Source: a virus
DNA length: 64,000 nt
IMG/VR virus record: IMGVR_UViG_3300043420_001819
Location: 1-64,000 of that record
Strand: one strand, 5' to 3'
Both the position numbers and the translations under genes were made by a program. The notes beneath the pieces are model-generated. The model was not told where the DNA came from. It saw only the letters and a program-made list of their open reading frames with translations, and ran no database searches. This document shows, one piece after another, positions 29,640-62,227 of the stretch (position 1 is its first letter; every line of letters begins with the position of its first letter).

Positions 29640-29649
29640 TATAATCGTA
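29640..29649 (-). promoter_or_regulatory. putative late promoter TACGATTATA
   Basis: Intergenic, 31 nt before the 29609 start; recurs before other late genes. Confidence 0.7.
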
Positions 29650-29673
29650 TGTTGTTAGTTGATATGAGCGTTG

Positions 29674-29952
29674 CTAAGTGACCAGCTCACTTTTTACAAA
29701 CTCGTCTACAGGTGGAATCTTTCCTGCGTGTGTAATATTCCCCCAAAAAAACGGATTAGTACTTTCTCCTATCCCTACAATTGGTATTTTTGGGTCATTC
29801 GTTGCTACTACATTCGCAACTGCTTCTTCCGTTGCTTCAACACCAAGTGCTTTTGCTAATGTTGAAACTGCCATACCTGCTAAAGGACCGCCTAATGCGG
29901 TCGCAATACCAGGTGCTACTGTACCTACTACACTTTTCCAATCAAATAACAT
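29674..29952 (-). pseudogene. truncated, chimeric second holin copy
   Basis: First ~54 aa nearly identical to the 28740..29255 product, then unrelated sequence; lacks the C-terminal TM segments. Confidence 0.7.
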
Positions 29953-30011
29953 CTATTTTCCTTTACATTTATTATTTATTACATTGCTTCGGGTAATGGT
30001 ACTTTTCTATT

Positions 30012-31160
30012 TTATACTTCTAAATCTAAAATATGATTTTGTTCAGGTGTTTCATAGATATACGCTGCACCCGCATAAGCACCATTACTAGCGTCACCAT
30101 CATTATCTTCTTCAGGTGAACCAATAACAATTCTTCCTGAACCTATTGATATTGATGCACCATATATTAATGCACCATATCCAGACACTGAATTTAATGT
30201 TGTTAATAGATTTCCATCTAGGTCATATACATAAACAGATGAAATTCCATCACCTAATAATAATCTACCATCACCAACAGCAACACTACCTGTGGATAGA
30301 CTGGTGCTTGGTTTTTTTAGATTTCCATTTAAATCAAATATTGTAAACGTATTAAAACCACAAACTACAATTCTTCCTTGTCCAACTACCACTTGGTTAC
30401 CGAAGTTATTATTATTTTGAAGAATATTATTATATTTTTTAGTGATTAAATTTCCATTTAAGTCATAAATATATATTGCTCCACAATTTGTATAACCTTC
30501 TGAAATATTGTCAGATTGATATGCACCAATAACAATCCTTCCTGAACCTACTGCCACTGAATTACCATAATAACTATTATATGCTCCATCATAAGCAGTT
30601 AATTTAGTGATTAGATTACCGTCTAAATCATATACATAAGCAGAACCTGAATCAGTACCTTTATCATTATCATTCTGTGCCCCAATGACAATTCTACCGT
30701 TACCCACTGAAACTGAATAACCATAGTAATCAAAAACATCCCTATCATAAGCAGTTAATTTGGTTAATAAATTTCCATCTAGGTCATATACATAAACAGA
30801 ACCTGCAGAATCATCATCTTGATATGATCCAACAACTATTCTACCTGAACCAACTGCTACTGAAGCACCATAAAAATCATAATATGCTCCATCATACGGT
30901 ATTAATTTAGCAATTAAATTTCCATCTAGGTCATATACATAAGCAGAACCTGACCAAAGTCCATCAGAATAGTCAAAGAATGCTCCAACCACAATTCTAC
31001 CTGAACCAACTGCTATGGAAGAACCATAAAAAAAATCACCTCCAGCATCATACGCTACAATTCTATTTTCATTACTCGGTAAAGTAGTCGCATCATAAGC
31101 AGTTTGACCTATAAATTGTTTATCACCTTCTATATAAGATTTCGGTGTTATTAATGCCAT
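30012..31160 (-). CDS. FG-GAP repeat 7-bladed beta-propeller protein C
   Basis: Seven YG.SV.VG.GRIV.G..GSAYVYDLDGNL units; blades 5-7 are divergent. Confidence 0.85.
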   Translation of the reverse strand: MALITPKSYIEGDKQFIGQTAYDATTLPSNENRIVAYDAGGDFFYGSSIAVGSGRIVVGAFFDYSDGLWSGSAYVYDLDGNLIAKLIPYDGAYYDFYGASVAVGSGRIVVGSYQDDDSAGSVYVYDLDGNLLTKLTAYDRDVFDYYGYSVSVGNGRIVIGAQNDNDKGTDSGSAYVYDLDGNLITKLTAYDGAYNSYYGNSVAVGSGRIVIGAYQSDNISEGYTNCGAIYIYDLNGNLITKKYNNILQNNNNFGNQVVVGQGRIVVCGFNTFTIFDLNGNLKKPSTSLSTGSVAVGDGRLLLGDGISSVYVYDLDGNLLTTLNSVSGYGALIYGASISIGSGRIVIGSPEEDNDGDASNGAYAGAAYIYETPEQNHILDLEV

Positions 31161-31161
31161 A

Positions 31162-31758
31162 TTAAACTCCTACAGAATCAATTAAATCCCAAGTGGTATT
31201 ATCCTCAAAATCAATTCCATTTAAAGCACTTCTACTCTTCTGATACTGTCCAAGTAAAACACCATAAGCATCATCATAAGATGCTACATTTTCCATTACT
31301 TTTGTTACTAATTCTTCTATTGTAATACCACGACCTTCTGCAATTTTAGTTAATAAAGGTGTATCAATTGTATTATCATTTGTAAAATCAATTGCTTCTT
31401 TTCTTTGTATTGCCCAAGATTTAACTTCGTCTTCCAAATAATCACTTTGAAGTTGTTTAACAGAACCTTCAAATTTATCTTTGATTTGTCTTGTTTTTAC
31501 CTTCACCATATCTTTAAGAACTTTTAAAGCATCTTCATCAGAAGTAAATCTTTCTTTCACTTCAAAATTAGCAATGTAAGAACCATCAATATTATCTACC
31601 GTAGTAAAAGTCGCAATTTGTCTCCAAGTTACTGTCGGTCTATTCGATATTGTATCAACCTCAACCGCATCTTCAGGAATTTCTTGGTTTAGTCTATCAT
31701 CAAATCTATAAGGAAAATTTAAAACATTTCCCTCTGTATCTATTTGTGCATATGTCAT
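31162..31758 (-). CDS. tail fibre assembly/chaperone-like protein
   Basis: E..SW..Q..EA..TPLL..IA..RGI...EL..KV motif. Confidence 0.7.
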   Translation of the reverse strand: MTYAQIDTEGNVLNFPYRFDDRLNQEIPEDAVEVDTISNRPTVTWRQIATFTTVDNIDGSYIANFEVKERFTSDEDALKVLKDMVKVKTRQIKDKFEGSVKQLQSDYLEDEVKSWAIQRKEAIDFTNDNTIDTPLLTKIAEGRGITIEELVTKVMENVASYDDAYGVLLGQYQKSRSALNGIDFEDNTTWDLIDSVGV

Positions 31759-31778
31759 ATATTATCCTTTTTTATTAT

Positions 31779-32978
31779 TTATTTACAAATAATTCTTTCA
31801 AAATGTGTATCGTAAGTTTCAGGTAATTCGTAGATGTATGCTGACCCTGAATTAGAACCTAAATCATCATCACTATATACCCCAATAACAATTCTACCTG
31901 AACCAACTGAAGCTGAACCACCATAATAATCATTAAGTGCTCCATCATAAGCAGTTAGTTTAGTTATTAGATTTCCATCTAGGTCATAAACATATGTTGA
32001 CCCTGAATTAGAACCTAAATCATCATCTTGATATGCTCCAATAACAATTCTGCCTGAACCTACTGATACTAAAAACCCATACCGATCATCATCTGCTCCA
32101 TCAAAAGCAGTTAGTTTAGTGATTAAATTACCATCTAAATCATAAACATAAGCAGAACCTGAATCTGTACCTTTATCATCATCACGCCATGCTCCAATAA
32201 CAATTCTACCTGAACCAACTGCTACTGAAGCACCATAATAATCATCAACTGCTCCATCATAAGCAGTTAATTTGGTAATTAGATTGCCATCAAGGTCATA
32301 TACATATGCTGACCCTGAATTAGAACCTAAATCATCATCTAGATATGACCCAATAACAATTCTACCTGACCCTACTGCTACTGAATAACCATAATAATCA
32401 GCAGATGCTCCATCAAAAGCAGTTAATTTAGTTATTAGATTACCATCTAAGTCATAAACGTATGCTGAACCTGAATCAAAACCTTTATCGTCATCATAAT
32501 ATGATCCAATAACAATTCTACCTGAACCCACTGCTACTGAACGACCATAATAATCAGAAGCTGCCCTATCATAAGCAGTTAATTTAGTTATTAGATTACC
32601 ATCAAGGTCATAAACATATGCTGAACCTAAATAATTATCATCACGATATGCTCCAATTACAATTCTATTTGAACCCACTGCTACTGAACGACCATGATAA
32701 TCATAACCAGCTCCATCATAAGCAGTTAGTTTAGTGATTAAATTACCATCAAGGTCATATACATATACTGAACCTTTAAAACCATCATCTCCGTATGCTC
32801 CAATAACAATTCTACCTGACCCTACTGCTACTGAATAACCATAATAATCAGAAGCAGCTCCATCATAAGCAGTTAATTTAGTCACACTTCCAAGAATATC
32901 CGTAACTTCATCAAAACTACTATGTAACAACCCACCATCATTGATTATTTTAAAACCACTTGAATCTATAAATGCCAT
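31779..32978 (-). CDS. FG-GAP repeat 7-bladed beta-propeller protein B
   Basis: Seven near-perfect ~49-53 aa repeats; start taken at 32978 from the TAATG coupling. Confidence 0.85.
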   Translation of the reverse strand: MAFIDSSGFKIINDGGLLHSSFDEVTDILGSVTKLTAYDGAASDYYGYSVAVGSGRIVIGAYGDDGFKGSVYVYDLDGNLITKLTAYDGAGYDYHGRSVAVGSNRIVIGAYRDDNYLGSAYVYDLDGNLITKLTAYDRAASDYYGRSVAVGSGRIVIGSYYDDDKGFDSGSAYVYDLDGNLITKLTAFDGASADYYGYSVAVGSGRIVIGSYLDDDLGSNSGSAYVYDLDGNLITKLTAYDGAVDDYYGASVAVGSGRIVIGAWRDDDKGTDSGSAYVYDLDGNLITKLTAFDGADDDRYGFLVSVGSGRIVIGAYQDDDLGSNSGSTYVYDLDGNLITKLTAYDGALNDYYGGSASVGSGRIVIGVYSDDDLGSNSGSAYIYELPETYDTHFERIICK

Positions 32979-34180
32979 TAATGTCTCTCCCAATCTTGTA
33001 AATCATACGGTGTTATACATGCTGAAGGTGTTTCGTAGACGTATGCCGAACCTCTATTATTATCTTGATATGCTCCAATAACAATTCTACCTGAACCAAC
33101 TGAAACTGAACGACCATATTGGTCATTAGCTGCTCCATCTGTACCAGCAGTTAATTTGGTTATTAAATTACCATCAAGGTCATAAACATATACTGAACCT
33201 GAATTATCACCATCATCATCATCTTGAATTGCTCCAATAACTATTCTACCTGAACCCACTGAAACTGAATAACCATAATTATCACTAGCTGCCCCATCTG
33301 TACCAGCAGTTAGTTTAGTTATTAGATTTCCATCTAGGTCATAAACATAAGCAGAACCTGAATCAGTATTACCATTGTCATCATCTCCATATGCTCCAAT
33401 AACAATTCTACCTGAACCTACTGATACTGAAGTACCATAAAAATCATAAGCTCCTCCATCATAGGCAGTTAGTTTAGTGATTAGATTTCCATCTAAGTCA
33501 TAAACATAAGCAGAACCTGAAGCATCACCATTATCACCATCATAAGATGACCCAATAACAATTCTACCTGAACCTACTGATACTGAAGTACCATAAGCAT
33601 CATTTTCTGCTCCATCATAAGCAGTTAGTTTGGTTATTAAATTACCATCTAAATCATAAACATATGCTGAACCTTTAGCAATTTCATCACTATATGCTCC
33701 AATTATAATTCTACCTGACCCCACAGAAACTGAATTACCATAAGTATCATATTCTGCTGCATCAAAAGCAGTTAGTTTAGTTATTAGATTACCATCTAAA
33801 TCATAAACATAAGCAGAACCTTGATAAGGAATTCCATCATCATCATAATATGCTCCAATAACTATTCTACCTGAACCAACTGATACTGAATTGCCATACC
33901 TATCAAGAGTGTCCCTATCATAAGCAGTTAGTTTAGTGATTAAATTACCATCCAAGTCATATACATATGCTGAACCTCTACTAATATCATCTGTATATGA
34001 CCCAATAACAATTCTACCTGAACCCACTGAACCTGAATTACCATATCTATCAGCATTTGCTCCATCATAAGCAGTTAGTTTATTCACATTACTAGGTAAA
34101 GTAGTTATCTCTCCACTTCCATACAAATAAGGAATACCATCAATAGTAGTTACTGCTTTGCCTTTACTCATAAACGACAT
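32978..34180 (-). CDS. FG-GAP repeat 7-bladed beta-propeller protein A
   Basis: Seven near-perfect repeats. Confidence 0.85.
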   Translation of the reverse strand: MSFMSKGKAVTTIDGIPYLYGSGEITTLPSNVNKLTAYDGANADRYGNSGSVGSGRIVIGSYTDDISRGSAYVYDLDGNLITKLTAYDRDTLDRYGNSVSVGSGRIVIGAYYDDDGIPYQGSAYVYDLDGNLITKLTAFDAAEYDTYGNSVSVGSGRIIIGAYSDEIAKGSAYVYDLDGNLITKLTAYDGAENDAYGTSVSVGSGRIVIGSSYDGDNGDASGSAYVYDLDGNLITKLTAYDGGAYDFYGTSVSVGSGRIVIGAYGDDDNGNTDSGSAYVYDLDGNLITKLTAGTDGAASDNYGYSVSVGSGRIVIGAIQDDDDGDNSGSVYVYDLDGNLITKLTAGTDGAANDQYGRSVSVGSGRIVIGAYQDNNRGSAYVYETPSACITPYDLQDWERH

Positions 34181-34189
34181 AATAACTCC

Positions 34190-34573
34190 TTATTGAATTT
34201 CTTCTAAAGAAAATTTGAACTTTTTCCCATTTTTATTGTTAATGATGTAAAGATTTTCTTCACCCTCTTGAATAGTCCAATCACCTTTAGTACCGTCAAT
34301 ATCATTGCCTTGTTCTTTATAATCGTTACTAAGATGTAAGTCTCCAGTATAGATGTTTTGCCAAACATAAGTTGGAGACCCAATATCGTATGTATCAGTA
34401 GTAGAAGGAATAATATCTTGAGCAACAGCAGATAAATCCACACCACCAGCACCGCCTGAAGACACTACCCAAGATGACCCATTCCAAGCATATGTTATAT
34501 TGTTAGCGGTATATGTATATGAACCATCTATAGGTGTATTTTCATCTGTTGGTAGGAAATTTAAAGCTGCCAT
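34190..34573 (-). CDS. tail-fibre-related protein
   Basis: YDIGS..WQNIYTGDLHLSN..GN.IDGT.G.WTIQEG..L motif of phage fibre termini. Confidence 0.7.
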   Translation of the reverse strand: MAALNFLPTDENTPIDGSYTYTANNITYAWNGSSWVVSSGGAGGVDLSAVAQDIIPSTTDTYDIGSPTYVWQNIYTGDLHLSNDYKEQGNDIDGTKGDWTIQEGEENLYIINNKNGKKFKFSLEEIQ

Positions 34574-34574
34574 T

Positions 34575-35018
34575 TTATATTACCTCTTCTTCTATTATTT
34601 GATTTGGATTTACTGGAAATACTACATTATAAGGAAATCCTTCTTGTTGTGGAACATCCCTTAATGCTTGTCTATAAGCTCTTAAAGCACTTGCATCTTG
34701 TCTATTATCTTCTGCTCTATTTATAAGTATATCAGCTTCATCGATGAGATAATCTCTTTCTGTCCGTACTTTATTTGCTTCTTTGTATTCCATTTGTCTA
34801 TTATAGTTTTCTGTATCATCTATAATATTCCATTGTCCATCTTGCCAAGTTATATACTCATATACTTCACAAGTTGGTTTATCTTCTACTTCTACATAAC
34901 CAGCATCTAAGATTTCTTCAGCAGTAAATGTAGTTTTATCTGTTCTTGTTGTACCATCAGAAAGTCTAATTCTATTTGGTAATTCTTTTGGGTATCTACC
35001 TTTATAACTATATAACAT
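34575..35018 (-). CDS. tail fibre assembly chaperone
   Basis: VR.ERD.L..YRQALRDVPQQ.GFP..V.FP. Confidence 0.75.
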   Translation of the reverse strand: MLYSYKGRYPKELPNRIRLSDGTTRTDKTTFTAEEILDAGYVEVEDKPTCEVYEYITWQDGQWNIIDDTENYNRQMEYKEANKVRTERDYLIDEADILINRAEDNRQDASALRAYRQALRDVPQQEGFPYNVVFPVNPNQIIEEEVI

Positions 35019-35027
35019 TTTTATTCC

Positions 35028-35624: not shown

Positions 35625-35633
35625 TGTTTATCC

Positions 35634-42751: not shown

Positions 42752-43708
42752 TTAATAGACCCCACAGTCAATTATGAGGTTATCAATATAATTTTTTGTC
42801 ACTAAAGAATGACTACTAACAATTTTGTCGTTTGATAATGCTGGAGCTAGGATAGTACCATCATAATAAACTTCAATTGCATTATACCTGTTGCTTGTAT
42901 CCGAACCAATACCTACCTCAAATATTGTTCCTGTTTTATTATCGTTGTATAAACCTAAAGTAGTTTGATAATTATTGTCTGCTCTTGTTCCTAAACCTAC
43001 TGAGAATGAATAATCTCCAGTAGCACCATTAGTATTATCGTTATCAAGTGAATAACTTAAATCAATAGACTGATTTCCTATATTCCCATAATACTCAGGA
43101 TTTCTTCCTCTTAGTCTCCATCCAATGTTTAAACCTTCAAGGAGTCTTTCAAGTTCTGAAGGAGATGAACCATTAGCCGCTGTAAGTCTTACGTAAATAC
43201 TACCAACAGTATCATCTATTAAAAGTGCTAAACCAGCCTGTAAAAATAACCCTGAAGTTGGCTCAACATTAGTTAAAGTACCATTTGTAGTGTCAATGTA
43301 TAGTTTATCCTTACTACTAAACCCAGAAGTATCTAGGTCAGTTACTTTTCCTAAAGATGCTACTTTTCCTACACCATCTGGTTCAATTTCAGTGGTAGTA
43401 AGCCCTAAAATATATGAAGGGTCAGTTGTAGTAGCTGGAGCAACTTTTATAAGTCCAGTATCTTCATCAACACCTGTTATCATTACAACGATACCATTTA
43501 TAATTGTTGAAGAAGTATCATTTATAACAGTGTGTAAAACTTCGTGCCCAAGTTGTAAGGACTCTCCTGATACTGCTAAGTTAATAGTATCTTCAATCTC
43601 GTTATATGTTAATGTTCCTTGGTCTTCAGGGCCGCCAACTATTTGTAATGAACGTACTTTGATAGGTATTATTTCTTCGCTTGCCCATGTTACTTCATTA
43701 ATTACCAA
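42752..43708 (-). CDS. virion structural / fibre-associated protein
   Basis: Beta-rich with a YadA-head-like segment; ends in DCGVY. Confidence 0.6.
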   Translation of the reverse strand: MVINEVTWASEEIIPIKVRSLQIVGGPEDQGTLTYNEIEDTINLAVSGESLQLGHEVLHTVINDTSSTIINGIVVMITGVDEDTGLIKVAPATTTDPSYILGLTTTEIEPDGVGKVASLGKVTDLDTSGFSSKDKLYIDTTNGTLTNVEPTSGLFLQAGLALLIDDTVGSIYVRLTAANGSSPSELERLLEGLNIGWRLRGRNPEYYGNIGNQSIDLSYSLDNDNTNGATGDYSFSVGLGTRADNNYQTTLGLYNDNKTGTIFEVGIGSDTSNRYNAIEVYYDGTILAPALSNDKIVSSHSLVTKNYIDNLIIDCGVY

Positions 43709-43738: not shown

Positions 43739-43748
43739 TATTATCGTA
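43739..43748 (-). promoter_or_regulatory. putative late promoter TACGATAATA
   Basis: Intergenic, 31 nt before the 43708 start. Confidence 0.7.
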
Positions 43749-46950: not shown

Positions 46951-47174
46951 TACTTACCACCAGATTTAATTGCTTTTGATTTTAAATTATCATACCAAAT
47001 ACAATTTCCCTTTATGTAAGTTGTTCCATATACTTTTGGAACTACTTTTGAGTTAGTGTTATCTGGTATTTGAAAATCTTCAAGAGTAGCAGGAGACATT
47101 GCCAAGTCATTAGGTACTGGCATAAAAATATAAGCTACAATTAATAATGCAGCAGTAATATAAAATAAAGGCAT
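46950..47174 (-). CDS. small tail-tip protein
   Basis: VP.VYGT..I.GN.IWY motif. Confidence 0.7.
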   Translation of the reverse strand: MPLFYITAALLIVAYIFMPVPNDLAMSPATLEDFQIPDNTNSKVVPKVYGTTYIKGNCIWYDNLKSKAIKSGGK

Positions 47175-47911
47175 TATATTGACTCCAAAGAAGGATTTTT
47201 AGGCGGAACTAATGGAAATCCACCGAAATTAGTTTTATTATTAAATTTTACTGAGCAAGTACTATATGATTTATCACAACCTTGCTTTAAAGAAATTACT
47301 GATGGTGTTTGGGTTATTCTAGTGTCAAGGTATAATACACCCCCAGAATCATGCTTTAGTATATATGCTGTTTCTGTATTATTAGTTGTAAGTACTCCTC
47401 CAGTATATAAACCAGTACTTCCCGCTATTGATGGTACAGTTACAGCATTTTGACTTCCTGCAACAGTAAACTCAGTTATATTAGTGGTATAGGCAGAGGA
47501 GCTTAATCCGCAATTACCATCATATAAGATAAAAGGACAACTTGTACTATAAGTACGATAAGGAACTTCACTATCAAAAAACACCTCTTTCTTTTTAAAT
47601 TTTAAATCAACTTCAAATCTTTCCCTATCAAAGTCCAATTTAACTAATATTCCACTAAATATTTCTAAACCACTCGCATAATCATAAATATTTAAGAATA
47701 ACTCTGCACTAGGGGCGTATAATACAAATTTAGTAAAAGGGTCAGTATCTAGCTTAGTTGTAACTCTAACTTCAGAATCAGTTAACTCCATAGTCAACTC
47801 AGTTCTTGCAAATGATGAGGCTGAGTAAATATACCCATTATACTCTATATCATCAGCAGATGCAGCATATCTATATGTTAGTCCTTGGTAAGTTACTTTA
47901 TACAATTCCAC
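47174..47911 (-). CDS. baseplate hub protein (DUF2163/BR0599-like)
   Basis: C...LYD..CG and GCDK...TC..KF.N..NFGGFP.VP motifs. Confidence 0.85.
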   Translation of the reverse strand: MELYKVTYQGLTYRYAASADDIEYNGYIYSASSFARTELTMELTDSEVRVTTKLDTDPFTKFVLYAPSAELFLNIYDYASGLEIFSGILVKLDFDRERFEVDLKFKKKEVFFDSEVPYRTYSTSCPFILYDGNCGLSSSAYTTNITEFTVAGSQNAVTVPSIAGSTGLYTGGVLTTNNTETAYILKHDSGGVLYLDTRITQTPSVISLKQGCDKSYSTCSVKFNNKTNFGGFPLVPPKNPSLESI

Positions 47912-47923: not shown

Positions 47924-48982
47924 TTATAGCTGTATCAAACTATAATCGTTGTATAGCTCTATTATATTTAATTTAACCGATGATTTATTAATATCATCTA
48001 AGTCAAAACTAATAGTATCTGTATCTAATCTACAAAAGTATAAAAACTGTGCATTAAGACATGAGCTAGTACTTAACCCATCTGGTAACGGAGTATCAAG
48101 TACGATAACATCACAAGTACCGTATGTTTCATTTACTTTACTTTCACAAGAAGTAATTACCCCAAAGTAGTTATAATCAGGTAAGTATAAAATCTTTGTA
48201 ACCTGATTTAATGCCATTGCTGCGAATGAATTTTTTATTACTAAAAAATTTTCTCCACCTATAGGTTGTTCAGCTATTGATAGTTCAGGAATAAAAGAAG
48301 GAAATAAAAATGATTTGTATTTACCTTTTAAGGTACTAAACCATGACTTTAAAGCTAACCTATCGTAAACGTCGTCTTGTTTTAAAGTTACTGAAAATTT
48401 CTTATAAGGGTTCTTATCAGATATTCTGTACTGCTTTTGAAATTCTTCACCAGCTACTACATACTTATGGTCTAAAACTTCACTAACACTATCAAAAATT
48501 TCAAAAGGAAACATTGTTTTTGAAAGAATAGGCAGAACTTCAATAGGTAAATCTACATAAGCTGTGTCTGATGGAGACATCCATGTTGTATTAAGAGTTG
48601 CAGTAGTTGTAGGTCCAACCATTCTTACTCTTATGGTATTAATGCCAATAGGAAGCGTTATTGCCCCAACTCCACTATTAAGAGAAGAAAATGCTACATA
48701 TTCTCCATTTACAAAAATATCTGCCCTTACATTAGCTCCAACTATTACTTTAAAGTAATATTCCCCATGCTCTACAATATTTATGTCAGACTCTAAAACT
48801 GCAAATACTGATGAGGGTGTATTAAGATAATCTGTTGTAACAATATTCAAAGAATCTACATAAAAATTACTTGCTAATAAACTATTACGTTGATAAGTAG
48901 TCTGTATTTCATCCATTCCGTAATAAGTATTAGGTAAGGTATATCCCGATGCATCATAGTATTTAATAAAAAATCTTTTCAT
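47924..48982 (-). CDS. distal-tail-like protein with a PA14-like N-terminus
   Basis: WF..LKG.YKSF..P and RLD.D motifs. Confidence 0.6.
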   Translation of the reverse strand: MKRFFIKYYDASGYTLPNTYYGMDEIQTTYQRNSLLASNFYVDSLNIVTTDYLNTPSSVFAVLESDINIVEHGEYYFKVIVGANVRADIFVNGEYVAFSSLNSGVGAITLPIGINTIRVRMVGPTTTATLNTTWMSPSDTAYVDLPIEVLPILSKTMFPFEIFDSVSEVLDHKYVVAGEEFQKQYRISDKNPYKKFSVTLKQDDVYDRLALKSWFSTLKGKYKSFLFPSFIPELSIAEQPIGGENFLVIKNSFAAMALNQVTKILYLPDYNYFGVITSCESKVNETYGTCDVIVLDTPLPDGLSTSSCLNAQFLYFCRLDTDTISFDLDDINKSSVKLNIIELYNDYSLIQL

Positions 48983-53818: not shown

Positions 53819-56800
53819 TTAACGTCTGATAGCGTTGTTAATTATTTGTCTTCCAGCTCTTGAGCTAAGGTATTGCTCAATTACTGACTCATCCATTGAG
53901 TTAACGATAACAACTTCTGATGATTGAGCTGCAGGAGCTGCAGGCTGTTTTGAAGCTTGATTAATAGCTTTTAAGTCATTTCGAGAAAGTACATACTCTC
54001 CTGTTTGAAGAATAGCTGGAACTTCATCTCTTTTCAATCCTGTTTTATTATCGTTAGTTACGTAACCCCCTGTGTGGTAAGTTTGTGCTTTAATCTGTGC
54101 AACTTGTGCCATACCTGCAGCTATTTGCCCTGCTGCAAGTACTGGACCAAGGAATGGGCCACCTTCAGCGAGTGCTTTAGTCGCACCTACATAGGTATTA
54201 ACAATTGCTTGTGCAACTTGTGCTGCTTTATATACTGCAAAGGCTGCCTTACTTTTTTTGCCAGATAATAAGTAAAATGCTTCAGCTATTTGTCCCATAG
54301 CTCCGAAACCTTTTCCATATAAATCAACAGTTCTATTAAACTCTGCTTCTTTTAGTTTATTATCTTTTTCTCTAATAGCCGCTAACTCTGCGGTATGAGC
54401 TTCTTGCATTTGTAACTCAAGAGCATTAATTTCTTTTTGCATTTCAAGTTTTTTCTGCCCTTCAGCCATAGTATCAAACTGTGCTTCATACTCTGCTTTC
54501 TGTGCTGCAAGAGTATTATAATGAATTTGGTATAATCCAATTTGTTCATTAAGTTGCTTATTTAGCTCCATAGTATATAGTGTATAATCAGTATCAGACC
54601 CAGCACCAAATCCTACAACTTCTTTTTCCATTTTAGCTTTAAAAGTTAAAGCAGATATAAGTGTTTGTTTAGCTGAAACAAGACTCATCTGTGCGAGAGC
54701 ATCTGTTTTTGTATATCCTGCATCTAATAATTTTTGAAGCTCATCTAATCTGTTAATTTCAGCAGTATTAACATTTGTATCATTTAAATAATCAAGTGCA
54801 GTTGCCTTCAATAATAACCTAGCATGATACTGCTCATACGTTGCTGCAGTAATTTGGTTTTGAGTAGATAAAATTTGCTTATCAATATTTGCGACATCAG
54901 TATCAACTTTTTTAATTTCAGTTTGAAGGAATTGAGATTTTTCAAGTAGCTTATTCTTTTCTAGAAGGTCTTGTTTATTAGAAGAATTATGCTTAACGAT
55001 ATCTTTTTCTAATTGATTTTGATCAGATAGTAACTTATTAAGGTATTGAGTAGTCTCTGCTTTACTCTTCATTAAATCATTCTGTATCCCACCTAGCTCA
55101 TTTATTTTTGTAAAAGTTGTTGCATCTCCATTTTGTAGTGCAGAAAACCTAGATGCTGTTAAAAAACCTTTATTTCTTTCAACATTGTAATCTTTTTGTT
55201 GTTTTAAATGCTCCTGAGTTAAATCAATTGCCTTTTGCTCATCAATATTTCCTAAATTACTCAACTTATTTTGTGCCGCATCTATATCAAGAATATCTTG
55301 TTTAATTTTTGCATAAGTTTTAAACGCTGCAACTAATCCTTCTAGTTGTGTTCTTTCTTTATCTGTGCTTGCTACAGTATTCTTAATAGCATCTTCTAAT
55401 TCATTAAATAGTCTAGGTAAATCTTCAATTTTTGCTTCTTTTAATTTATTAGAGAACTCAGCTGCTAAATCACCGGCTACTTTACCACCATCAATATTAA
55501 ACTGCTCACTAACCCAATTAGTTAATTGTTTTTCTAAGTTAGAGTTCATTTGTATTGCTGTTTGTTTAAAATTTTCTACAGCAACATTACTTCTTTCTGT
55601 AACATTAATATTATTTTGATACAAAGTTTGTATATCAGTTGCAATCTGTTTTAAATTTTTAATATATTCATCAGATACAACCTTTATTACTTCAGTTTGT
55701 TTATCAGACAGTTGTATTGCACTAGGTTGGCTTGCTAAAGGTACTGTACTATTTGTTGATGTAAGTTCTTTAAGATTTTCAACATTTAAATCACCATTTG
55801 TATTAATAAGAACTTTTTTAAAGTCAGGTAACTTTCCTTTTCCCTCCCCTATTCTTATAACAGCTTGTTTCGTTTGCTCATTAACTTCTAAAACTACATC
55901 ACCTAAACCTGCTATTTCATTTTTATACCGTTGTAGTTCATCAACTAACCTAGTAGCTTCTTGTATAGAAGATGTGCCTATTTCAATACCAGGCCCAGAT
56001 AGGGCTGTTGATGTTTTAGTAGACCCAACAACAGTAGACTGGGAAACATTTGCAAGAGTACCACCAGTAATATTTAATGGCATACTAAGTTTTTTCTCAA
56101 TGTTATCTACTAGGGTTGAAAGTTCTTTAATACTCCCTGGCTTAAGCCCTGATTTAATAGTCTCTTCGAGTACTGGAATTAGTCTTTGAGTTGCATTAGC
56201 AGCTTTTTGACTAGTAACGGCACTATTTGTGAGAGCATTTGCAGCTTCTACAGTTCTATCTGAAAGCTCTGTAGTAACAGTTGACTGCTCATTTAACCAT
56301 TTTATTAAGTCAGTCATAGCAGCTTTATTTTTTCCACTTGAAAAATCAGCATTTTTAACAATTTCTTGTTGTTTTTTAAGGATAGCAACTTCGTCAGTAA
56401 TTGCATTTACTAGTAGTTTATTCTTAGGGTCTGCACCTTTTAAAGCACTATCAAGAGTATTTAACATACTTGTTATAACTTTATCAATCTCTTGTTGTGC
56501 TTTTGTTCCTGTTATTGCTGTTAATTCAGGAGTTTGTCTTACATAAGCTTGAGCATAAGCAGTAGCTGAACCTAAATTTTCTCTAGTATCTAACAAAGAA
56601 TTTGTAATCTGCAAAGTAGCATTTAACTTAGATATTTCAGATTGATTCTTATCAATCTCAAGTGCTATCTTAATTTTATTATTCCCTGTTGCAGTTCTGT
56701 ATTGGCGTTGTAAATCACGAATTTTATCAGATATTGCTTGAATATTTTCTTCAATACCTAAAGTTTCTATTTCATTTTTAGTCCCTCTAATTGCATCGGC

Positions 56801-59800
56801 TGCGTAATAAGCAGCAGTACCTATTGCTGCAATTGCAAGAATTACTGGATGGCGTAATATAGTATTAAGTGCAGCTTTTAGAAGACCAACTGCACCACTA
56901 AGTATTCCTACTCCACCTGCTGCTGATGCAGCTGCACCACCAAATACACCTAAAGCTCCTACTCCATGTATAAGGAAAGGTGTAATTCCAATTAATACCA
57001 TATTTTTTAAGGCATTAACCAAACCAATTACTGTAGTTGTTGCTGCCCCTGCTTTTGTGATAAGTAACCCTAAACCAACAGTTCCAGCTATAATACTTAT
57101 ATTATTGATAAAATTATCTTTAAACTCATCCCAGTTATCACTTACTTTTTTAATTACTAAAGATATTTCTGACATTTTTTGGGTAAGAGATTCAACACCT
57201 TTAAATACTATTGGTAAAATATTTGTAGCTAATTCATTAAATGCTATCCCTAAAGAGTTACCTAATTTTTCCCATGTAATAGCATAACTTTCTGTTACAT
57301 ATGCTGCTTTGTCTACTTCTCCCTTAACTCCTGCGTTAAGTTTAGATAAATGTCTAAAAAACTCATCAGCATTGTTTCTTAATAACGTTAAAGACTGTCT
57401 TGCTAGAATATCCATTCCAGAAGTTAACTGTGAAAAGTCAGCATCACTTAAATTCTTTAATTTATTAATTAGCTCAGTCATTGCTTTATTGGATTCCTTA
57501 GTATCCAAATTTAGTCTTGTCATAAATGACTTTTGGTTAATACCTAATGAGCTATAGAAATAATCCATATCTGAGGAAGATTCAGATAATGTTGTTGCAA
57601 AACGTCTAATTTGAGTACCAATAGTAGATGCATTAACCCCTGCATTAGAGAAAGCAGTAGCCATTGCTAGTACAGCATTTGCAGTTATCCCTGATGACTT
57701 AGCTGCTGCAAGAGCATAGTTAGATAATGTTCCCAAATCTTGAGTAGATAAACGAGATTGATTAGCTGCATAAGCTAATTTATCGGCAAAATCAGTAATA
57801 GTATCTGTTGTACCTGTTACTGCGTCTTTTACATCACCAAATACCTCATTAAAAGTAATAAGAGCACTAGCAGAAGTTGCAAAAGTATCCCCAGTTAATC
57901 TTGCCATTTTAATAACGTTTTCTGTTGCTTCTGCTACGTTATTAGATGCAATACCAGCACGTCCAAGTGCTAGTGCTGCCTCATTAATATCTTTTAAGTT
58001 ACCACCATAAGTAACAGATAGTTTTGACAAATTACGCTCTAACCTATTAGCAGAATTAGCAGACATATCTAAAACAGCTGATAAGGTATGTTGCGCTTGG
58101 TCAAACTCAACGGAGTATTCAATACCTTTTTTCATAGTATTAATAACTTGATAAATACCTGCATATAAACCAGCATAAGCTAAAGCTCTATTTGCAATAT
58201 TTCCTAACCATTTAACTTTAGACATTTTAGATAACTCAGCACTAACTTCTTTAGTTCTTCTTTTAGTAGCATCTAATTCTTTTTCTAATTTAATTGTTTC
58301 AGAGGTAGCGTCTTGAATAGCGTCTATAGGTGCTGATTTAAAACTAGTATCAAATTGTTTTTTTGATTTTTCTGCTTTATCAATAGAAATTTTTAATTCA
58401 TCTAATTGAGAAATTGCTTCATTAAGTGTAGAACGAGGAGCCCATTTAAGTTTAGTATTAATTAATCTTTCTAGAGCTGCCTTTTGGTCTCTGTAAGAAG
58501 CAAGAATTTTATCATAGTTTTTATCAAATTCTATTTTTTTATTAAAAGTGCTCTTAAGAGTATTCATTTTATCTTGAAGATACCCTACTGCCTTAGAATC
58601 ATTTAATATTTCTGTACCAAAAGCCCTTAAAGATTGTGTAGTTTGATTATACTCTTCAGGTTTAATAGTACCTGCTTTTAAGTTTGCGGCAGCTTCCTTC
58701 TCAAGGGCATTAGCTTGTTTTAATACTTCTATCTTTTTATAAATTGTAGCTAATTCAGCTTTAGCAAGAGCAGGGTCAGCTGTACCTTGTTGTAATTCTT
58801 TAGAAACTTCTCTTACTTTTACTTTTAACTGTGATAAAACAGAAAGAGAATCAGGTGTAAACCCTTGTTTTATCCCGGCAATCTCTTTGTTTAATGTCTT
58901 TGCTGCCTCCCTAGCATTTACAAAACTTTTAGAAAGGTCTAATCTTGAAGATGCTTGTTGTACTTCTGTAATAACACTATTTACATTTTTTAAACCGTTT
59001 TGTAATGAAGTTACATAAGCATTAACTCCACCAGTAGATAATTTTGTTGGAGCTTTCGATAGTAGTCCCTCTACCTTTAATATTTCTGCTTGTAAAAGTT
59101 GTTTTGCAGCATTTGCTTTGTTAAGGTCCTCTGTAGCCGCTGAAGGTCCTTTTTTAACTAGTATATTGTCTAAAGATTCTTTTTGCTTTTTTAGGGCACT
59201 CAAGGTATCTTCAACTTCTTTTTTAGCTTCCTTACGAATTGATAATAGATTTTTTTCTTTAGTTGAAAGGCTAGTATATAAATTAGAAGATGATTTTAGA
59301 GCAGCTTCTACTTCTTGTACAGATATTGCATTAGCTGCTAAAGCATCTTTCATAAGGCTAAGTTTATTAACAGTAGAGTCTATTTTTTTGGAATCAATTT
59401 GTAGAGAACCAAACTTTGCAATTGCATCATCAATTTTTAGTGTTTTATTATATGTATTAGTTAAATGTTTTTGTAAAGTAAATAAACCGCTTGTATCACC
59501 TGTTTTATCAATATTTTTACTTAGCTCAGTAAAATTACCTTTTAAACTACGGATTACTCCACTAGATATACCTAAATTTTTTAAAGAATTAATAAGATTA
59601 TTAACATTATCCTTAGTACCTTCTACAGTATAGTTTAGTGCTTGACCTAAACCCTTAAATTGTAAAGTACTAGAACCTACTTGACTTGCTAAAAGTTTAA
59701 ATCTATTTTCTAACTGTGGTGTTAACTCTCCATCTGCTTCACTAATCGCATCTTGAAAATCTTTTACTTTTGAAACAATCTTTTGTATTTGTTGGCCTAA

Positions 59801-59974
59801 TTTATTATATTGTGCAGACATTTTATCTAATTGGGCTGGATTTGCAGAGAGTATTCTATTAGCTTTCTCTCTTTCCTGCTCTAATGCTGTACCTAACTTA
59901 GTAATTGTTCTAAATAGGTCTGGAGCACCCTTCTGTACAAAGTCAATATTTAATTCAATAGTATTTTTAGCCAT
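53819..59974 (-). CDS. tail tape measure protein
   Basis: 2051-aa helical Ala/Lys-rich ORF; core ADKLAYAAN.S..GT..R; C-terminal HTGG.V..DEVPAILQ.GE.VL. Confidence 0.92.
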   Translation of the reverse strand: MAKNTIELNIDFVQKGAPDLFRTITKLGTALEQEREKANRILSANPAQLDKMSAQYNKLGQQIQKIVSKVKDFQDAISEADGELTPQLENRFKLLASQVGSSTLQFKGLGQALNYTVEGTKDNVNNLINSLKNLGISSGVIRSLKGNFTELSKNIDKTGDTSGLFTLQKHLTNTYNKTLKIDDAIAKFGSLQIDSKKIDSTVNKLSLMKDALAANAISVQEVEAALKSSSNLYTSLSTKEKNLLSIRKEAKKEVEDTLSALKKQKESLDNILVKKGPSAATEDLNKANAAKQLLQAEILKVEGLLSKAPTKLSTGGVNAYVTSLQNGLKNVNSVITEVQQASSRLDLSKSFVNAREAAKTLNKEIAGIKQGFTPDSLSVLSQLKVKVREVSKELQQGTADPALAKAELATIYKKIEVLKQANALEKEAAANLKAGTIKPEEYNQTTQSLRAFGTEILNDSKAVGYLQDKMNTLKSTFNKKIEFDKNYDKILASYRDQKAALERLINTKLKWAPRSTLNEAISQLDELKISIDKAEKSKKQFDTSFKSAPIDAIQDATSETIKLEKELDATKRRTKEVSAELSKMSKVKWLGNIANRALAYAGLYAGIYQVINTMKKGIEYSVEFDQAQHTLSAVLDMSANSANRLERNLSKLSVTYGGNLKDINEAALALGRAGIASNNVAEATENVIKMARLTGDTFATSASALITFNEVFGDVKDAVTGTTDTITDFADKLAYAANQSRLSTQDLGTLSNYALAAAKSSGITANAVLAMATAFSNAGVNASTIGTQIRRFATTLSESSSDMDYFYSSLGINQKSFMTRLNLDTKESNKAMTELINKLKNLSDADFSQLTSGMDILARQSLTLLRNNADEFFRHLSKLNAGVKGEVDKAAYVTESYAITWEKLGNSLGIAFNELATNILPIVFKGVESLTQKMSEISLVIKKVSDNWDEFKDNFINNISIIAGTVGLGLLITKAGAATTTVIGLVNALKNMVLIGITPFLIHGVGALGVFGGAAASAAGGVGILSGAVGLLKAALNTILRHPVILAIAAIGTAAYYAADAIRGTKNEIETLGIEENIQAISDKIRDLQRQYRTATGNNKIKIALEIDKNQSEISKLNATLQITNSLLDTRENLGSATAYAQAYVRQTPELTAITGTKAQQEIDKVITSMLNTLDSALKGADPKNKLLVNAITDEVAILKKQQEIVKNADFSSGKNKAAMTDLIKWLNEQSTVTTELSDRTVEAANALTNSAVTSQKAANATQRLIPVLEETIKSGLKPGSIKELSTLVDNIEKKLSMPLNITGGTLANVSQSTVVGSTKTSTALSGPGIEIGTSSIQEATRLVDELQRYKNEIAGLGDVVLEVNEQTKQAVIRIGEGKGKLPDFKKVLINTNGDLNVENLKELTSTNSTVPLASQPSAIQLSDKQTEVIKVVSDEYIKNLKQIATDIQTLYQNNINVTERSNVAVENFKQTAIQMNSNLEKQLTNWVSEQFNIDGGKVAGDLAAEFSNKLKEAKIEDLPRLFNELEDAIKNTVASTDKERTQLEGLVAAFKTYAKIKQDILDIDAAQNKLSNLGNIDEQKAIDLTQEHLKQQKDYNVERNKGFLTASRFSALQNGDATTFTKINELGGIQNDLMKSKAETTQYLNKLLSDQNQLEKDIVKHNSSNKQDLLEKNKLLEKSQFLQTEIKKVDTDVANIDKQILSTQNQITAATYEQYHARLLLKATALDYLNDTNVNTAEINRLDELQKLLDAGYTKTDALAQMSLVSAKQTLISALTFKAKMEKEVVGFGAGSDTDYTLYTMELNKQLNEQIGLYQIHYNTLAAQKAEYEAQFDTMAEGQKKLEMQKEINALELQMQEAHTAELAAIREKDNKLKEAEFNRTVDLYGKGFGAMGQIAEAFYLLSGKKSKAAFAVYKAAQVAQAIVNTYVGATKALAEGGPFLGPVLAAGQIAAGMAQVAQIKAQTYHTGGYVTNDNKTGLKRDEVPAILQTGEYVLSRNDLKAINQASKQPAAPAAQSSEVVIVNSMDESVIEQYLSSRAGRQIINNAIRR

Positions 59975-60003
59975 AAATAACCCTTAGTGAGTAATAATTA
60001 TCC

Positions 60004-60013
60004 TATAATCGTA
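60004..60013 (-). promoter_or_regulatory. putative late promoter TACGATTATA
   Basis: Intergenic, 30 nt before the tape-measure start. Confidence 0.7.
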
Positions 60014-60015
60014 TT

Positions 60016-60702
60016 TTAATGCTTCCGTCTTGATTCCTGAATTGTTTTATCCATTTGTGCTTTTTTCTGTGCTTCAACCTGGTTGTGTACTAAAGTAGAA
60101 GCAATTGTGAAAAAAGGAGTTTGGTCATACCAACCACCTGCATCAGGTAAGAATTTAGCATTATATATATTGTAGGCATCTACTGCTGGATTTAAAACAT
60201 CTATATTAATGTCATAAATTGGGCAGTGTGTGTATAGAGTATTATTTACCATAAGTTTAAAATCAGGGTTTTTATCTTTTTCCCCAATAAAACCACAATT
60301 CCTTACCCCTTGAAGTCTTTTCTGTTTACAAATATCACACTTCCAACTATCACCTGAAAGTATTTCTGCAAAGTATAGTTCAACAGTTTCTTTTAGTGAT
60401 ACATACTCTTCTTCGCTAATAGAAGATTTTTTCATAATTTCTTCAGAAATTTCTACTATTATTTCTGAAGGAAGTTCAGATAATTCTAATGTTTTATTAT
60501 TAATAGTTTCAATAGTAATGATTGCTATTTCACAAATACGGTAAGCGTATTGTTTAGTTCTATGACCGGAGTATAATTGGTCTAATGAGTTAATTTGTCC
60601 AATGGAGAGGTTTTTGTATACTACAGTGACCTCGGGAAAGGACATTTCAGAATAAACCCGAGGTGTGTAGTAATGAGTTATCTTACTATTTAGATTTCCC
60701 AT
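60016..60702 (-). CDS. tail assembly chaperone-like protein
   Basis: Position before the tape measure; LP.AGGW.DQ motif and CxxC. Confidence 0.65.
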   Translation of the reverse strand: MGNLNSKITHYYTPRVYSEMSFPEVTVVYKNLSIGQINSLDQLYSGHRTKQYAYRICEIAIITIETINNKTLELSELPSEIIVEISEEIMKKSSISEEEYVSLKETVELYFAEILSGDSWKCDICKQKRLQGVRNCGFIGEKDKNPDFKLMVNNTLYTHCPIYDINIDVLNPAVDAYNIYNAKFLPDAGGWYDQTPFFTIASTLVHNQVEAQKKAQMDKTIQESRRKH

Positions 60703-61105
60703 CTACGGTGATTCCAAGTAGAATCTCAGTGTGTTCTGGATTTCTAGTAATAGCAGCAATGGCTGTTGCTACTTCACTTAAAACTTCTAAAGGCAATAAT
60801 TCAATACATGAATCTTCCATAAGGCCATTTGTATCTCTGATGAATTTAACAGGTTTACCTTTTTCATCATCGATATTAGACCAACCAACAACTCCTCTTT
60901 TAACAATGTTCCAGTTAAAAGAACCAGTTGCAAACATTATTGTTGAATCATCTTGATTAATTTTTGTCAGTCCATCTTCTAATTTAGCAAAAGACTTTGA
61001 ATCAATTTTTTTAAGCTGGATTGTAAAAGGATTTTCATCACCCCTAAATAAAACGGGGATAAAATCATAAATTTCGTCTTTTTTTGTAGAGACTACTAGA
61101 GGCAT
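60686..61105 (-). CDS. tail assembly chaperone
   Basis: Follows the tail tube gene; GVVGWSNI.D..G motif. Confidence 0.7.
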   Translation of the reverse strand: MPLVVSTKKDEIYDFIPVLFRGDENPFTIQLKKIDSKSFAKLEDGLTKINQDDSTIMFATGSFNWNIVKRGVVGWSNIDDEKGKPVKFIRDTNGLMEDSCIELLPLEVLSEVATAIAAITRNPEHTEILLGITVDGKSK

Positions 61106-61136
61106 ATATTTCTCCTAAAATTTAAAACTAAATAGT

Positions 61137-61152
61137 GAGGGCAAAAGCCCTC
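61137..61152 (-). terminator. hairpin / terminator after the tail tube gene
   Basis: GAGGGC-TTTT-GCCCTC followed by ACTATTTAGTTTT. Confidence 0.6.
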
Positions 61153-61157
61153 TGGTA

Positions 61158-62186
61158 TTAATAGTGAGCTACTAAGATTGCTTCACCAATTGTTGCATCT
61201 TCATACGCCTCGAACTCAATTTTGTTTTCAAGGATACCATCAGCATCTTCAATAGAAACTGAAGTATATCTTACACGTGGGAAGTAGATAGCAAATTTGT
61301 GAGTACCTGATGTCATTTCAAGATAAACAGCACCATCAGTGTTGTTTTTAAACTTGTTAAGTTCAGTGTAATCTTCAAAAGTAACTGACATTGACCCTGA
61401 TACAACTTTAGCAGTTACTGCTTTATCAGAGATACCTTCTGTAGTGATAGCTTCTCTATCTGATACAGTGTTTTCAATTGTGAAAGAAAGGTCTTTCGCT
61501 TCATAAGATACACCGTCAACAGTAAATGTAGCATTTTTACCTACATATGGGTTTTCAGTAATTGCAGTACCCACAAGAATTGTTTCACCAGAAGCAGTTG
61601 TATACCCAGCAGCACCCATATCAAAAGAGATAGTTGCAAGGTCAGCAACAGGGAAATCAAATGTTACACTTCCTGGAACAATACCAGTATATGTGATAGT
61701 TTGACTATCTGATGCATCACATCCAAGCATTTGCTTAACTGCCAATGATGGTTGGTCACCACATGGTTTAGCAAGTTTATAAAGTACAGCTGTACCTGTT
61801 TCACCACTCTGTGCTTCATAGATTTCATAAGCAGGTGTAACACCATCATCAGAGAATCCAATAAATGCACCAGTACCAAGACCAGCATCTTCACGTACTC
61901 CAAGAGCAACTTCAAGAAGAGCAGAACCATTAAGGTCGTCTGATGAATTTCCTAGAGGAATAAGTTCTACACCAAGAGTTCCACTTCCATAGATTTTTCC
62001 AGCAAGTTTAGGCGCACCAATGAAAGAGTTTTTAATTGCTTTTCTTTCAATAGAATCACCTTCTGGACGGAGTGCAGTGTCATTAGTTACCTCAACAACT
62101 TCGCTGTTTGTAAATGTACCGCCTGAATTAAATGAACTCTCTTTGAGAATTGCATATACGGCACTATTTGAACGATAAATAGCCAT
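61158..62186 (-). CDS. major tail tube protein
   Basis: KES.F..G N-terminus, acidic beta-rich sequence, position upstream of chaperones and tape measure. Confidence 0.8.
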   Translation of the reverse strand: MAIYRSNSAVYAILKESSFNSGGTFTNSEVVEVTNDTALRPEGDSIERKAIKNSFIGAPKLAGKIYGSGTLGVELIPLGNSSDDLNGSALLEVALGVREDAGLGTGAFIGFSDDGVTPAYEIYEAQSGETGTAVLYKLAKPCGDQPSLAVKQMLGCDASDSQTITYTGIVPGSVTFDFPVADLATISFDMGAAGYTTASGETILVGTAITENPYVGKNATFTVDGVSYEAKDLSFTIENTVSDREAITTEGISDKAVTAKVVSGSMSVTFEDYTELNKFKNNTDGAVYLEMTSGTHKFAIYFPRVRYTSVSIEDADGILENKIEFEAYEDATIGEAILVAHY

Positions 62187-62217
62187 TATAATGTCCTTTT
62201 GTAAGTTTTGTCACAAT

Positions 62218-62227
62218 TATTATCGTT
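62218..62227 (-). promoter_or_regulatory. putative late promoter AACGATAATA
   Basis: Intergenic, 32 nt before the tail tube start. Confidence 0.7.

Follow-up and report, generated by a model that had tools for sequence, protein, structure and literature searches.

We analysed the first 64,000 bases (hereafter the window) of the 83,427-bp virus record IMGVR_UViG_3300043420_001819, a phage genome with a G+C content of about 32% that public sequencing runs place in freshwater metagenomes, and we found that an eight-letter word, ACGATWAT (W is A or T), stands a short distance before its late genes. The word is very probably a late promoter. More specifically, we give a probability of about 0.6 to the reading that it serves -35-less late promoters as their -10 element and is recognised by the phage's own sigma factor. 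A preliminary description of the window, made from its letters, had named six copies of the word and proposed an early-to-late cascade run by a FliA-like phage sigma. Coordinates above 64,000 refer to the whole record.

All six named copies were present with the coordinates and strands first given, and the distances to the next start codon on the same strand were also as described. They head the list below, in which each copy is given as the putative promoter of the gene that follows. The seventh line is a doubtful site, and the last four lines are copies beyond the window that the preliminary description did not include.

62219-62226, minus strand: tail tube promoter, ACGATAAT, 32 nucleotides (nt) before the major tail gene 61158-62186
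60005-60012, minus strand: tape measure promoter, ACGATTAT, 30 nt before gene 53819-59974; kept in the relatives G001, G002 and G003
47942-47949, minus strand: tail assembly promoter, ACGATTAT, in the last codons of gene 47924-48982 and 30 nt before gene 47174-47911
43740-43747, minus strand: promoter of a gene of 318 amino acids (aa), ACGATAAT, 31 nt before gene 42752-43708
29641-29648, minus strand: lysis promoter, ACGATTAT, 31 nt before gene 29286-29609, the first gene of the lysis block
25512-25519, plus strand: Rep/RuvC promoter, ACGATTAT, 24 nt before a PriCT-domain gene, which is followed by RuvC
15709-15716, plus strand: doubtful DnaB site, ACGATAAT, 26 nt before a DnaB-like helicase gene
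66579, minus strand: copy upstream of a protease-like gene, which is followed by the major head gene
67993, minus strand: copy before the portal gene
68138, plus strand: copy before a small gene, then the terminase small and large subunit genes
79196, plus strand: copy before a 102-aa gene without assigned function

The genes downstream of the word are of late type by PHROGs annotation and include those for portal, head protease-like protein, major head, tail, tape measure, tail assembly, endolysins, and the small and large terminase subunits. For gene 47174-47911, which had been called the hub gene, the PHROGs annotation is tail assembly. The 318-aa gene 42752-43708, first described as a fibre block, had no PHROG match. 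The first gene of the lysis block is followed by two endolysin-like genes.

To quantify the enrichment, the window was compared with 100 dinucleotide shuffles, and the 16 copies of ACGATWAT in the window stood against a mean of 2.84 (sd 1.77, maximum 9), with none of the shuffles reaching 16. The whole genome has 21 copies, and nine of them lie fully within the intergenic set, which is 5,435 nt or 6.5% of the genome. Enrichment over shuffled intergenic sequence had been set beforehand as a check, and dinucleotide shuffles of the intergenic segments gave a mean of 0.44 copies and a maximum of 3, so that none of 2000 shuffles reached the nine observed. Among 7-mers with at least six intergenic copies, CGATTAT and ACGATTA were the most enriched in intergenic sequence and ranked above the Shine-Dalgarno words. 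All nine intergenic copies have the same orientation as the downstream gene, and their distances to the start codon are 24, 28, 29, 30, 31, 31, 32, 41 and 58 nt.

The shape of the element was then determined with a seed of CGAT only, searched 18 to 50 nt before gene starts in four genomes, which gave 44 sites. The letter before the seed was A in 38 of the 44 sites, and the letters after it were W in 41, A in 35 and T in 35. The flanks resolve from the CGAT seed alone, and therefore the eight-position word is not an artefact of the search pattern. An additional preference for A was found exactly 7 nt past the last base of ACGATWAT (19 of 28 sites). If this A is taken as position +1, the word is written A-14 C-13 G-12 A-11 T-10 W-9 A-8 T-7, and in this numbering position -15 is A or T in 24 of the 28 sites and position -14 is A, so the GC of sigma-28-type promoters is not there. 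The preliminary description had seen no shared -35 box, and we also found none: among 28 pooled sites from three genomes no upstream column exceeded 0.32 bits. A k-mer test for -35 words at variable spacing returned only ACAC (10 of 32 sites, p = 1.1e-4 over 218 tests), and this signal derives partly from orthologous copies.

Relatives of the phage were found through the portal protein and the sigma (two of them) and then through the sigma alignment (the others). The studied genome is called G000, and it forms clade A together with G001 (89.7 kb), G002 (a fragment of 27.8 kb) and G003 (82.1 kb, with terminal repeats), whose sigmas are about 61% identical to that of G000 where the gene is present. 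In all four genomes the word is found ahead of the portal, terminase-side, protease, major tail, tape measure and tail assembly genes. At these six orthologous promoters the mean pairwise identity was 0.97 in the 8-mer and only 0.49 and 0.47 in the 30-nt flanks, which means that the word is kept in related phages while its flanks diverge. A copy is also found before the G001 homolog of the gene behind the 25512 site, and none was found before the G003 homolog.

A second clade, clade B (G004-G006), consists of three complete genomes of 79-84 kb with a G+C content of 25-28%, and their sigmas are 32-34% identical. ACGATWAT is not enriched in clade B (5-9 copies versus 14-19 for the control). The top upstream hexamer in clade B is GATATA, which precedes 10-15 genes per genome against about 1 expected. 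Alignment of 42 such sites showed C in 32 and then Y (C or T) in 38 before the hexamer, so the clade B word reads CYGATATA; it lies 21-49 nt, mostly 26-35 nt, before the starts, and an A is again preferred seven bases past the word (30 of 42 sites). The recognition helix of the sigma differs between the clades too, being AYLRVSGAIKD in clade A and AYKKIYGRMLD in clade B, in which the Arg is replaced by Lys and the Asp is kept; G-A-T is common to both words. Each clade has its own word before the major tail gene (4/4 genomes in clade A and 3/3 in clade B), the portal gene (4/4 and 3/3) and the protease gene (4/4 and 2/3). As a separate observation, the word lies directly before both the major head and the large terminase genes in 3/3 clade B genomes and in 0/4 clade A genomes; in clade A these two genes appear to be expressed from the upstream protease and small-gene promoters.

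Further sampling between or beyond the two clades gave less material. P0012 has a sigma at 41% identity with an intermediate helix. A metagenome scan returned 12 loci, including four contigs of an intermediate clade (6-12 kb) that carry mostly early genes; five of the 12 loci were examined (L074, L075, L077, L078 and L079), and the others duplicated G004-G006 or were too short. On L078 there are two anecdotal sites, ACGATATA and CCGATATA, with 26 nt and 31 nt, respectively, between word and start. The contig G007:C1, an 86.6-kb contig of a Tenericutes metagenome-assembled genome with a 31% sigma-like match, was considered as a third clade and dropped: it has 85 open reading frames (ORFs) without a dominant upstream word and looks cellular.

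The candidate reader of the word is encoded in the window as follows.

19439-20011, minus strand: sigma gene, 190 aa, with regions 2 and 4 and only a stub of region 3.0

In Pfam the protein matches Sigma70_r2 at residues 12-75 (E 1.7e-10) and Sigma70_r4 at residues 132-179 (E 2e-6). There is one Sigma70_r2 match per genome in G000 and G001, so this is their sole sigma gene. Among NCBIfam models only the generic TIGR02937 cut-off is passed; the FliA models TIGR02479 and NF005413 gave 47.0 bits (cut-off 189.6) and 48.7 bits (cut-off 201), and the match covers region 2 only. All 15 members of an alignment of phage sigmas from the two clades match FliA models (best E 1.1e-21, as compared with 4.3e-13 for SigB/F/G), and the best sequence matches of the sigma in the PDB are the FliA chains 9wsf and 9wsm (E 4.4e-8). 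Twelve cluster representatives reached E <= 1e-30 in an exhaustive profile search. In this search the top 20 rows were set aside as the phage family and ranks 21-150 were taken as the 130 nearest outsiders; 92 of these matched TIGR02479 at E <= 1e-40, 2 matched RpoS and 0 matched SigB/F/G. The outsiders are mostly about 230-260 aa long; the phage sigma is about 50 residues shorter. With hhalign, the alignment to a FliA-dominated profile had a probability of 99.9% and an E-value of 2e-36; the paired parts were regions 2 and 4 and the first turn of region 3.0, and gaps of 16, 15 and more columns fell across region 3. By these comparisons the nearest family of the sigma is FliA/WhiG, so the label FliA-like is right as to affinity. 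It does not hold as membership: judged by the same models, the sigma is not a member of the FliA family, with scores far under the cut-offs and most of region 3 missing.

The gene next to the sigma deserves a separate remark. It encodes 469 aa (18029-19438, minus strand), follows the sigma gene, has only a weak zinc-ribbon match, and has homologs in G001, G003 and G004-G006 at 24-43% identity. In G001 the word lies at 60133-60140, inside the end of the sigma gene and 29 nt before the homolog 60170-61573, and on L078 CCGATATA lies before the homolog 9676-11190, in the same place as in G001. The two genes abut in G000, without a word between them.

Then the register of the word was compared with that of sigma-28, as given in a structural study of the Pseudomonas aeruginosa factor. 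There the -10 element is (-15)GCCGATAA(-8) and the -35 element is TCTAAAG; the -11A is flipped out onto Y76; -12G is contacted by R80, a conserved residue of group 3 sigmas at the position of sigma-70 W434, and -12G/-13C by D87; R97 recognises the GC of the extended -10 element; and position -7 shows no conservation (PMC12784957). If the A preference marks +1, the CGATAA of the phage word would fall in the register of GCCGATAA. The CGAT core that had been pointed out as the link to sigma-28 is thus found in the phage word, as part of a CGATAA shared in the same predicted register. Pairwise alignment places sigma-28 Y76, R80 and D87 opposite phage Y59, R63 and D70, with the offset of the residue numbering taken from matching residue identities. 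R63 and D70 are invariant in the 12-member sigma family, and the C and G of the word are invariant in site sets that were themselves CGAT-seeded or pattern-defined. In the hhalign comparison the conserved Arg column of the FliA profile (R97) faces a variable G/S/P/K; two basic positions are close by, K/R78 at a distance of 2 residues and the invariant R84 at a distance of 4. The variable residue opposite R97 would fit the missing extended -10 GC, although with these basic residues so near the fit is a tentative one. The preliminary description had also suggested cross-talk with flagellar promoters of the host. The near-invariant A-14, where sigma-28 promoters have C, and the missing -35 box would argue against a simple interchangeability with them.

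These features also bear on the possibility that the words are read by the flagellar sigma-28 of the host (FliA or SigD), which would tie late expression to motility and leave the phage sigma another or a supplementary role. Half of the clade B sites read CCGATAT, which we take to be close to the -10 box of Bacillus SigD. The phage word also contains CGATAA, which forms the core of the -10 element of sigma-28 and has the same predicted register there (PMC12784957). However, the word sites have no -35 box and no GC at -15/-14, and mutating both of these bases is reported to be severely defective for sigma-28; A-14 (38/44) and T-7 (35/44), which are conserved at the phage sites, are not sigma-28 features, position -7 being unconserved there (PMC12784957). 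In addition, the word changes in step with the phage sigma. We therefore regard reading by the host flagellar sigma as unlikely.

Upstream of the sigma gene, the preliminary description had placed a consensus sigma-70 promoter, and this was found with a full match at the head of the operon.

23779-23807, minus strand: sigma-70/sigma-A-type promoter, TTGACA-17-TATAAT, 12/12 consensus, in a 133-nt gap

It heads a minus-strand operon that runs from 23703 to 18029 and ends with the sigma gene and the next gene. A simple scan found no minus-strand terminator-like site between this promoter and the sigma gene; the counts in our terminator scans were no higher than in shuffles, and terminators were therefore not used to define transcription units. 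The genome has nine sites that match the consensus at 11/12 or better, and seven of them lie outside the late block at 27-68 kb. The two inside the block are doubtful, one being in a coding region and one having a -10 that overlaps a start codon. Near-consensus sites are thus mostly outside the late block, which indicates that canonical promoters and the word mark different gene sets. For the proposed cascade this means that its components stood up at the level of sequence, namely a word like a -10-only promoter before late genes, a sole sigma, and a 12/12 promoter upstream of it, and that the temporal order of early and late is deduced from gene functions.

Another explanation is that the housekeeping sigma reads the words as weak promoters without a -35 box (GATAAT/GATTAT) with the help of a phage activator, in which case the phage sigma would serve different promoters. 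Late activators of host polymerase, for example RinA and Mu C, are common in phages. GATAAT equals TATAAT at 5 of 6 positions, a resemblance that tells against our preferred reading, and A-11 and T-7 are kept. However, all collected sites have G at position -12, as the design of the searches required, and no set of T-12 variants surfaced; the upstream ACG is as constrained as the hexamer; and the same genome has perfect TTGACA/TATAAT promoters elsewhere. The GATATA of clade B has no T at -7 in this register. Moreover, we found no further over-represented intergenic word that might serve the phage sigma. Use of the words by the housekeeping sigma is improbable to about the same degree as use by the host flagellar sigma, and the phage sigma is still the better candidate for their reader.

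Some evidence came from RNA. In a freshwater metatranscriptome that belongs to another study than the source metagenome, 20 contigs matched the 44-64 kb stretch at 99% identity or more, so this phage or a nearly identical strain was probably active in the sample. One run with a small share, X4, was left out of the RNA evidence, and no weight was given to stretches that no RNA contig covers. The deepest of the aligned RNA contigs, 1,203 nt long and with a depth of 18.1, spans the major tail gene; its end at 62198 is 12 nt before the ATG and 21 nt past the word. The 23 letters beyond this end look like Illumina adapter sequence; if so, the fragment really ended there. This gives a weak hint that abundant major-tail RNA begins between the word and the gene.

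It is least likely, and in our view quite improbable, that the word acts elsewhere, as the binding site of a non-sigma regulator or as an RNA element of the 5' leader for processing or translation: the spacing is indeed measured to the start codon and not to a mapped transcript start, and upstream genes often abut the word without a terminator between, so that read-through RNA would contain it, but the window has no Rfam family match, 8 of 9 leaders fold no better than shuffles (z -0.31 to +1.75), the word is neither palindromic nor repeated as the sites of dimeric regulators usually are, the deepest major-tail RNA contig stops downstream of the word and excludes it, and its composition together with the A at 7 nt downstream fits a -10 element. 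The sole leader with a hairpin that beats shuffles is that of the 29641 site (z = -2.85).

Several points weigh against the reading of the word as a promoter element of the phage sigma. Twelve of the 21 copies are intragenic, and 8 of the 10 sense-strand intragenic copies share one frame in which they encode N-D-N, N-D-Y or D-D-N; codon usage therefore explains the excess inside genes. The 15709 copy belongs here: it lies inside gene 15423-15743, encodes N-D-N and is absent before the G001 and G003 homologs, so it is a doubtful promoter site and probably reflects codons only. The 47942 copy is also a coding copy (N-D-Y in the upstream gene), and still it is conserved before the same gene in 4/4 clade A genomes. 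For the sites 29641 and 43740 no ortholog was matched in the relatives, so their conservation could not be scored. In the relatives the word is, by raw count, not striking beside a reversed-pattern control, with 25 versus 13 in G001 (about 2-fold), 12 versus 9 in G002 (about 1.3-fold) and 15 versus 29 in G003 (no enrichment), and therefore only the positions of the word carry signal in these genomes. The co-variation of word and helix is essentially one evolutionary contrast between two well-sampled clades, whose hosts may differ too. Region 4 is retained in the sigma even though the search for a -35 box found none. As to RNA, assembled contigs show neither transcript starts nor levels, DNA may be present in an RNA library, and the contig end at 62198 lies 14 nt short of the predicted start. 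Finally, the pairing of this sigma with the word is inferred from sequence comparison, and the mapping of its recognition residues depends on pairwise and profile alignments.

With these points in mind, we infer the word as promoter, the phage sigma as its reader, and also the register, the start site and the early-to-late order, from which the following course would result. Host RNA polymerase with the housekeeping sigma would start at TTGACA/TATAAT promoters, and the one at 23807-23779 would drive the sigma operon. The phage sigma would then join the host core polymerase and start transcription about 7 nt downstream of each ACGATWAT, giving short leaders of about 20-25 nt before the portal gene, the terminase operon, the protease/capsid genes, the major tail and the tape measure genes, and likewise before the tail assembly gene, the 318-aa gene, the lysis genes and the Rep/RuvC genes. 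The sigma may be a shortened FliA relative that keeps region 2, with the Arg and Asp that would contact -12G and -13C, as well as region 4; it would have lost most of region 3, and its promoters would have lost the upstream GC and the -35 box. A more far-reaching version is possible, though we hold it at somewhat less than an even chance: in a lineage of uncultured phages of about 80 kb, a minimal FliA-derived sigma runs the late programme without most of region 3 and without extended -10/-35 reading, it keeps the sigma-28 reading of C-13 G-12 A-11 T-10, and sister clades have retuned the helix and the late promoters together.

The system lies in a genome with the following layout, taken from a crude ORF map.

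1-18 kb, plus strand: block with rIIA, helicases, DNA polymerase and DnaB
25.3-18.0 kb, minus strand: operon with flap endonuclease, dNMP kinase, Mre11/Rad50-like proteins, the sigma and the 469-aa gene
25544-26647 and 26589-27056, plus strand: short pair of the PriCT-domain gene and the RuvC gene
About 68-27 kb, minus strand: long late block from portal through to the lysis genes
Past the window end: terminase genes and a further plus-strand region

None of the deposited phages matched the sigma region in a nucleotide search or was similar at the DNA level, and in a protein search the portal protein had at most 25% identity to cultured phages, so there was no annotated relative to lean on. 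In an attempt to infer the host, the lysis proteins gave no clear envelope signal, one tRNA-Met was found, and a Shine-Dalgarno-like core was present in 78 of 110 ORFs. The single tRNA-Met, with anticodon CAT, lies at 79848-79923 of the genome, beyond the window.

Some other observations were made in the same genomes. In the lysis block, the 92-aa ORF 29674-29952 (minus strand) is nearly a duplicate of the N-terminal half of the 171-aa ORF 28740-29255 (minus strand); their first approximately 55 residues are the same, glycine/alanine-rich and membrane-like, and the late-promoter copy 29641 together with gene 29286-29609 sits between the two. The adjacent endolysin-like genes 27862-28263 and 28260-28730 (both minus strand) both match the PHROG endolysin families 465, 2649 and 1768. 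A copy of ACGATAAT at 27997, inside the first of them, is kept in G001, yet it reads as N-D-N codons. A GC-richer repeat of about 29 nt occurs at about 1918-1946, about 25388-25416 and, in the genome, about 67.96-68.13 kb; it precedes rIIA, the flap endonuclease operon, the portal gene and the terminase-side gene, and its last two copies flank a divergent pair of late promoter words. In G001, identical sequence surrounds the sites 1777 and 88402, which are 86.6 kb apart and thus point to terminal redundancy, and G003-G006 are classed with direct terminal repeats. The completeness estimates are nevertheless only 42-55% and therefore look too low for the lineage.

Among known systems, coliphage phiEco32 is the closest one described. 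Its sigma gp36 reads single-element middle/late promoters with the sequence tAATGTAtA, from which transcription starts 6-8 bp downstream; gp36 has no region 4 homology, which is given as the reason for the missing -35 element, and in phage 7-11 a sigma region 4 is linked to a bipartite promoter; in the 7-11 subgroup the sigma has diverged, and another motif takes up similar positions in the genome (PMC8948821). As in phiEco32, a phage sigma here appears to be made from a host-sigma promoter and a single element without a -35 box precedes late genes. The starts 6-8 bp downstream would agree with a start at the A that is preferred here 7 nt downstream, and as between phiEco32 and 7-11, a subgroup with a diverged sigma uses a different word at equivalent positions (here major tail, portal and protease). 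Unlike phiEco32, our phage has another promoter word and a sigma of FliA/WhiG affinity, with no BLAST-level similarity. The main difference is that, unlike in gp36, region 4 is present here together with what looks like a one-element promoter.

The sigma-28 group (FliA/SigD/WhiG) is the nearest family, and the phage system is like it in the -10 core CGAT(A/T)A, which is in register, and in the kept Arg and Asp. It is unlike sigma-28 in that the sigma scores below the family cut-offs, is about 50 residues shorter and misses most of region 3. Unlike the bipartite sigma-28 promoter (GCCGATAA plus a -35 element of the TAAA type), the phage promoters have no -35 and no GC at -15/-14, and A-14 and T-7 are conserved. 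The targets here are also phage late genes and not flagellar genes.

The T4 factor gp55 is a minimal factor without region 4. Like gp55, the phage sigma would be a phage specificity factor that works with host core polymerase on a single late promoter element of the -10 type. In T4, late transcription depends on gp33 as co-activator together with gp45, the sliding clamp (PMC2988020, PMC7892883). Unlike in T4, the promoter word is an unrelated one, and partners of the gp33/gp45 type were not identified here.

Promoters of the sigmas of Bacillus phage SPO1 are bipartite. Like SPO1, our phage seems to switch from the housekeeping sigma to a phage sigma for its later genes. The SPO1 cascade goes from host sigma-A to gp28 and then to gp33/gp34 (PMC13401047). 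Unlike these two successive sigma activities, one sigma and one single-element class were found here, with no BLAST-level match to SPO1-like records. In a survey of phage sigmas, SPO1 gp28 falls in a paraphyletic cluster with the bacterial sigD, sigH and sigI, and the part of the survey available to us makes no mention of FliA-type phage sigmas or their promoters (bioRxiv 10.1101/2021.11.12.468384). By tblastn against deposited phage records, the sigma had no BLAST-level homology to gp36, gp55, gp28 or gp34, and among 50,697 such records at E <= 1e-3 there was one partial match (25% of the query), in an uncultured faecal phage. A full-text literature search, with subscription journals largely outside it, found no description of a phage sigma derived from FliA along with its set of promoters.

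That phages run cascades of sigma factors is textbook knowledge, and the principle is therefore an old one. What the analysis adds is a compact, sequence-defined system of one 190-aa sigma, one 8-nt word and about 8-10 promoters per genome in phages without a cultured relative, and it ties a phage late sigma to the flagellar sigma family. It opens no long-standing question, and it provides a practical annotation rule for the late operons of these metagenomic phages. Between them, the two clades supply naturally occurring sigma and promoter variants for swaps in vitro, which would address the region 2.4 residues that set the specificity from -14 to -7 in group-3-type sigmas. If the tentative picture of a minimal FliA-derived sigma retuned together with its promoters is true, these phages would be a natural specificity-swap series for -10 recognition of the sigma-28 type, and the retained region 4 would only dock on the polymerase flap or bind a partner.

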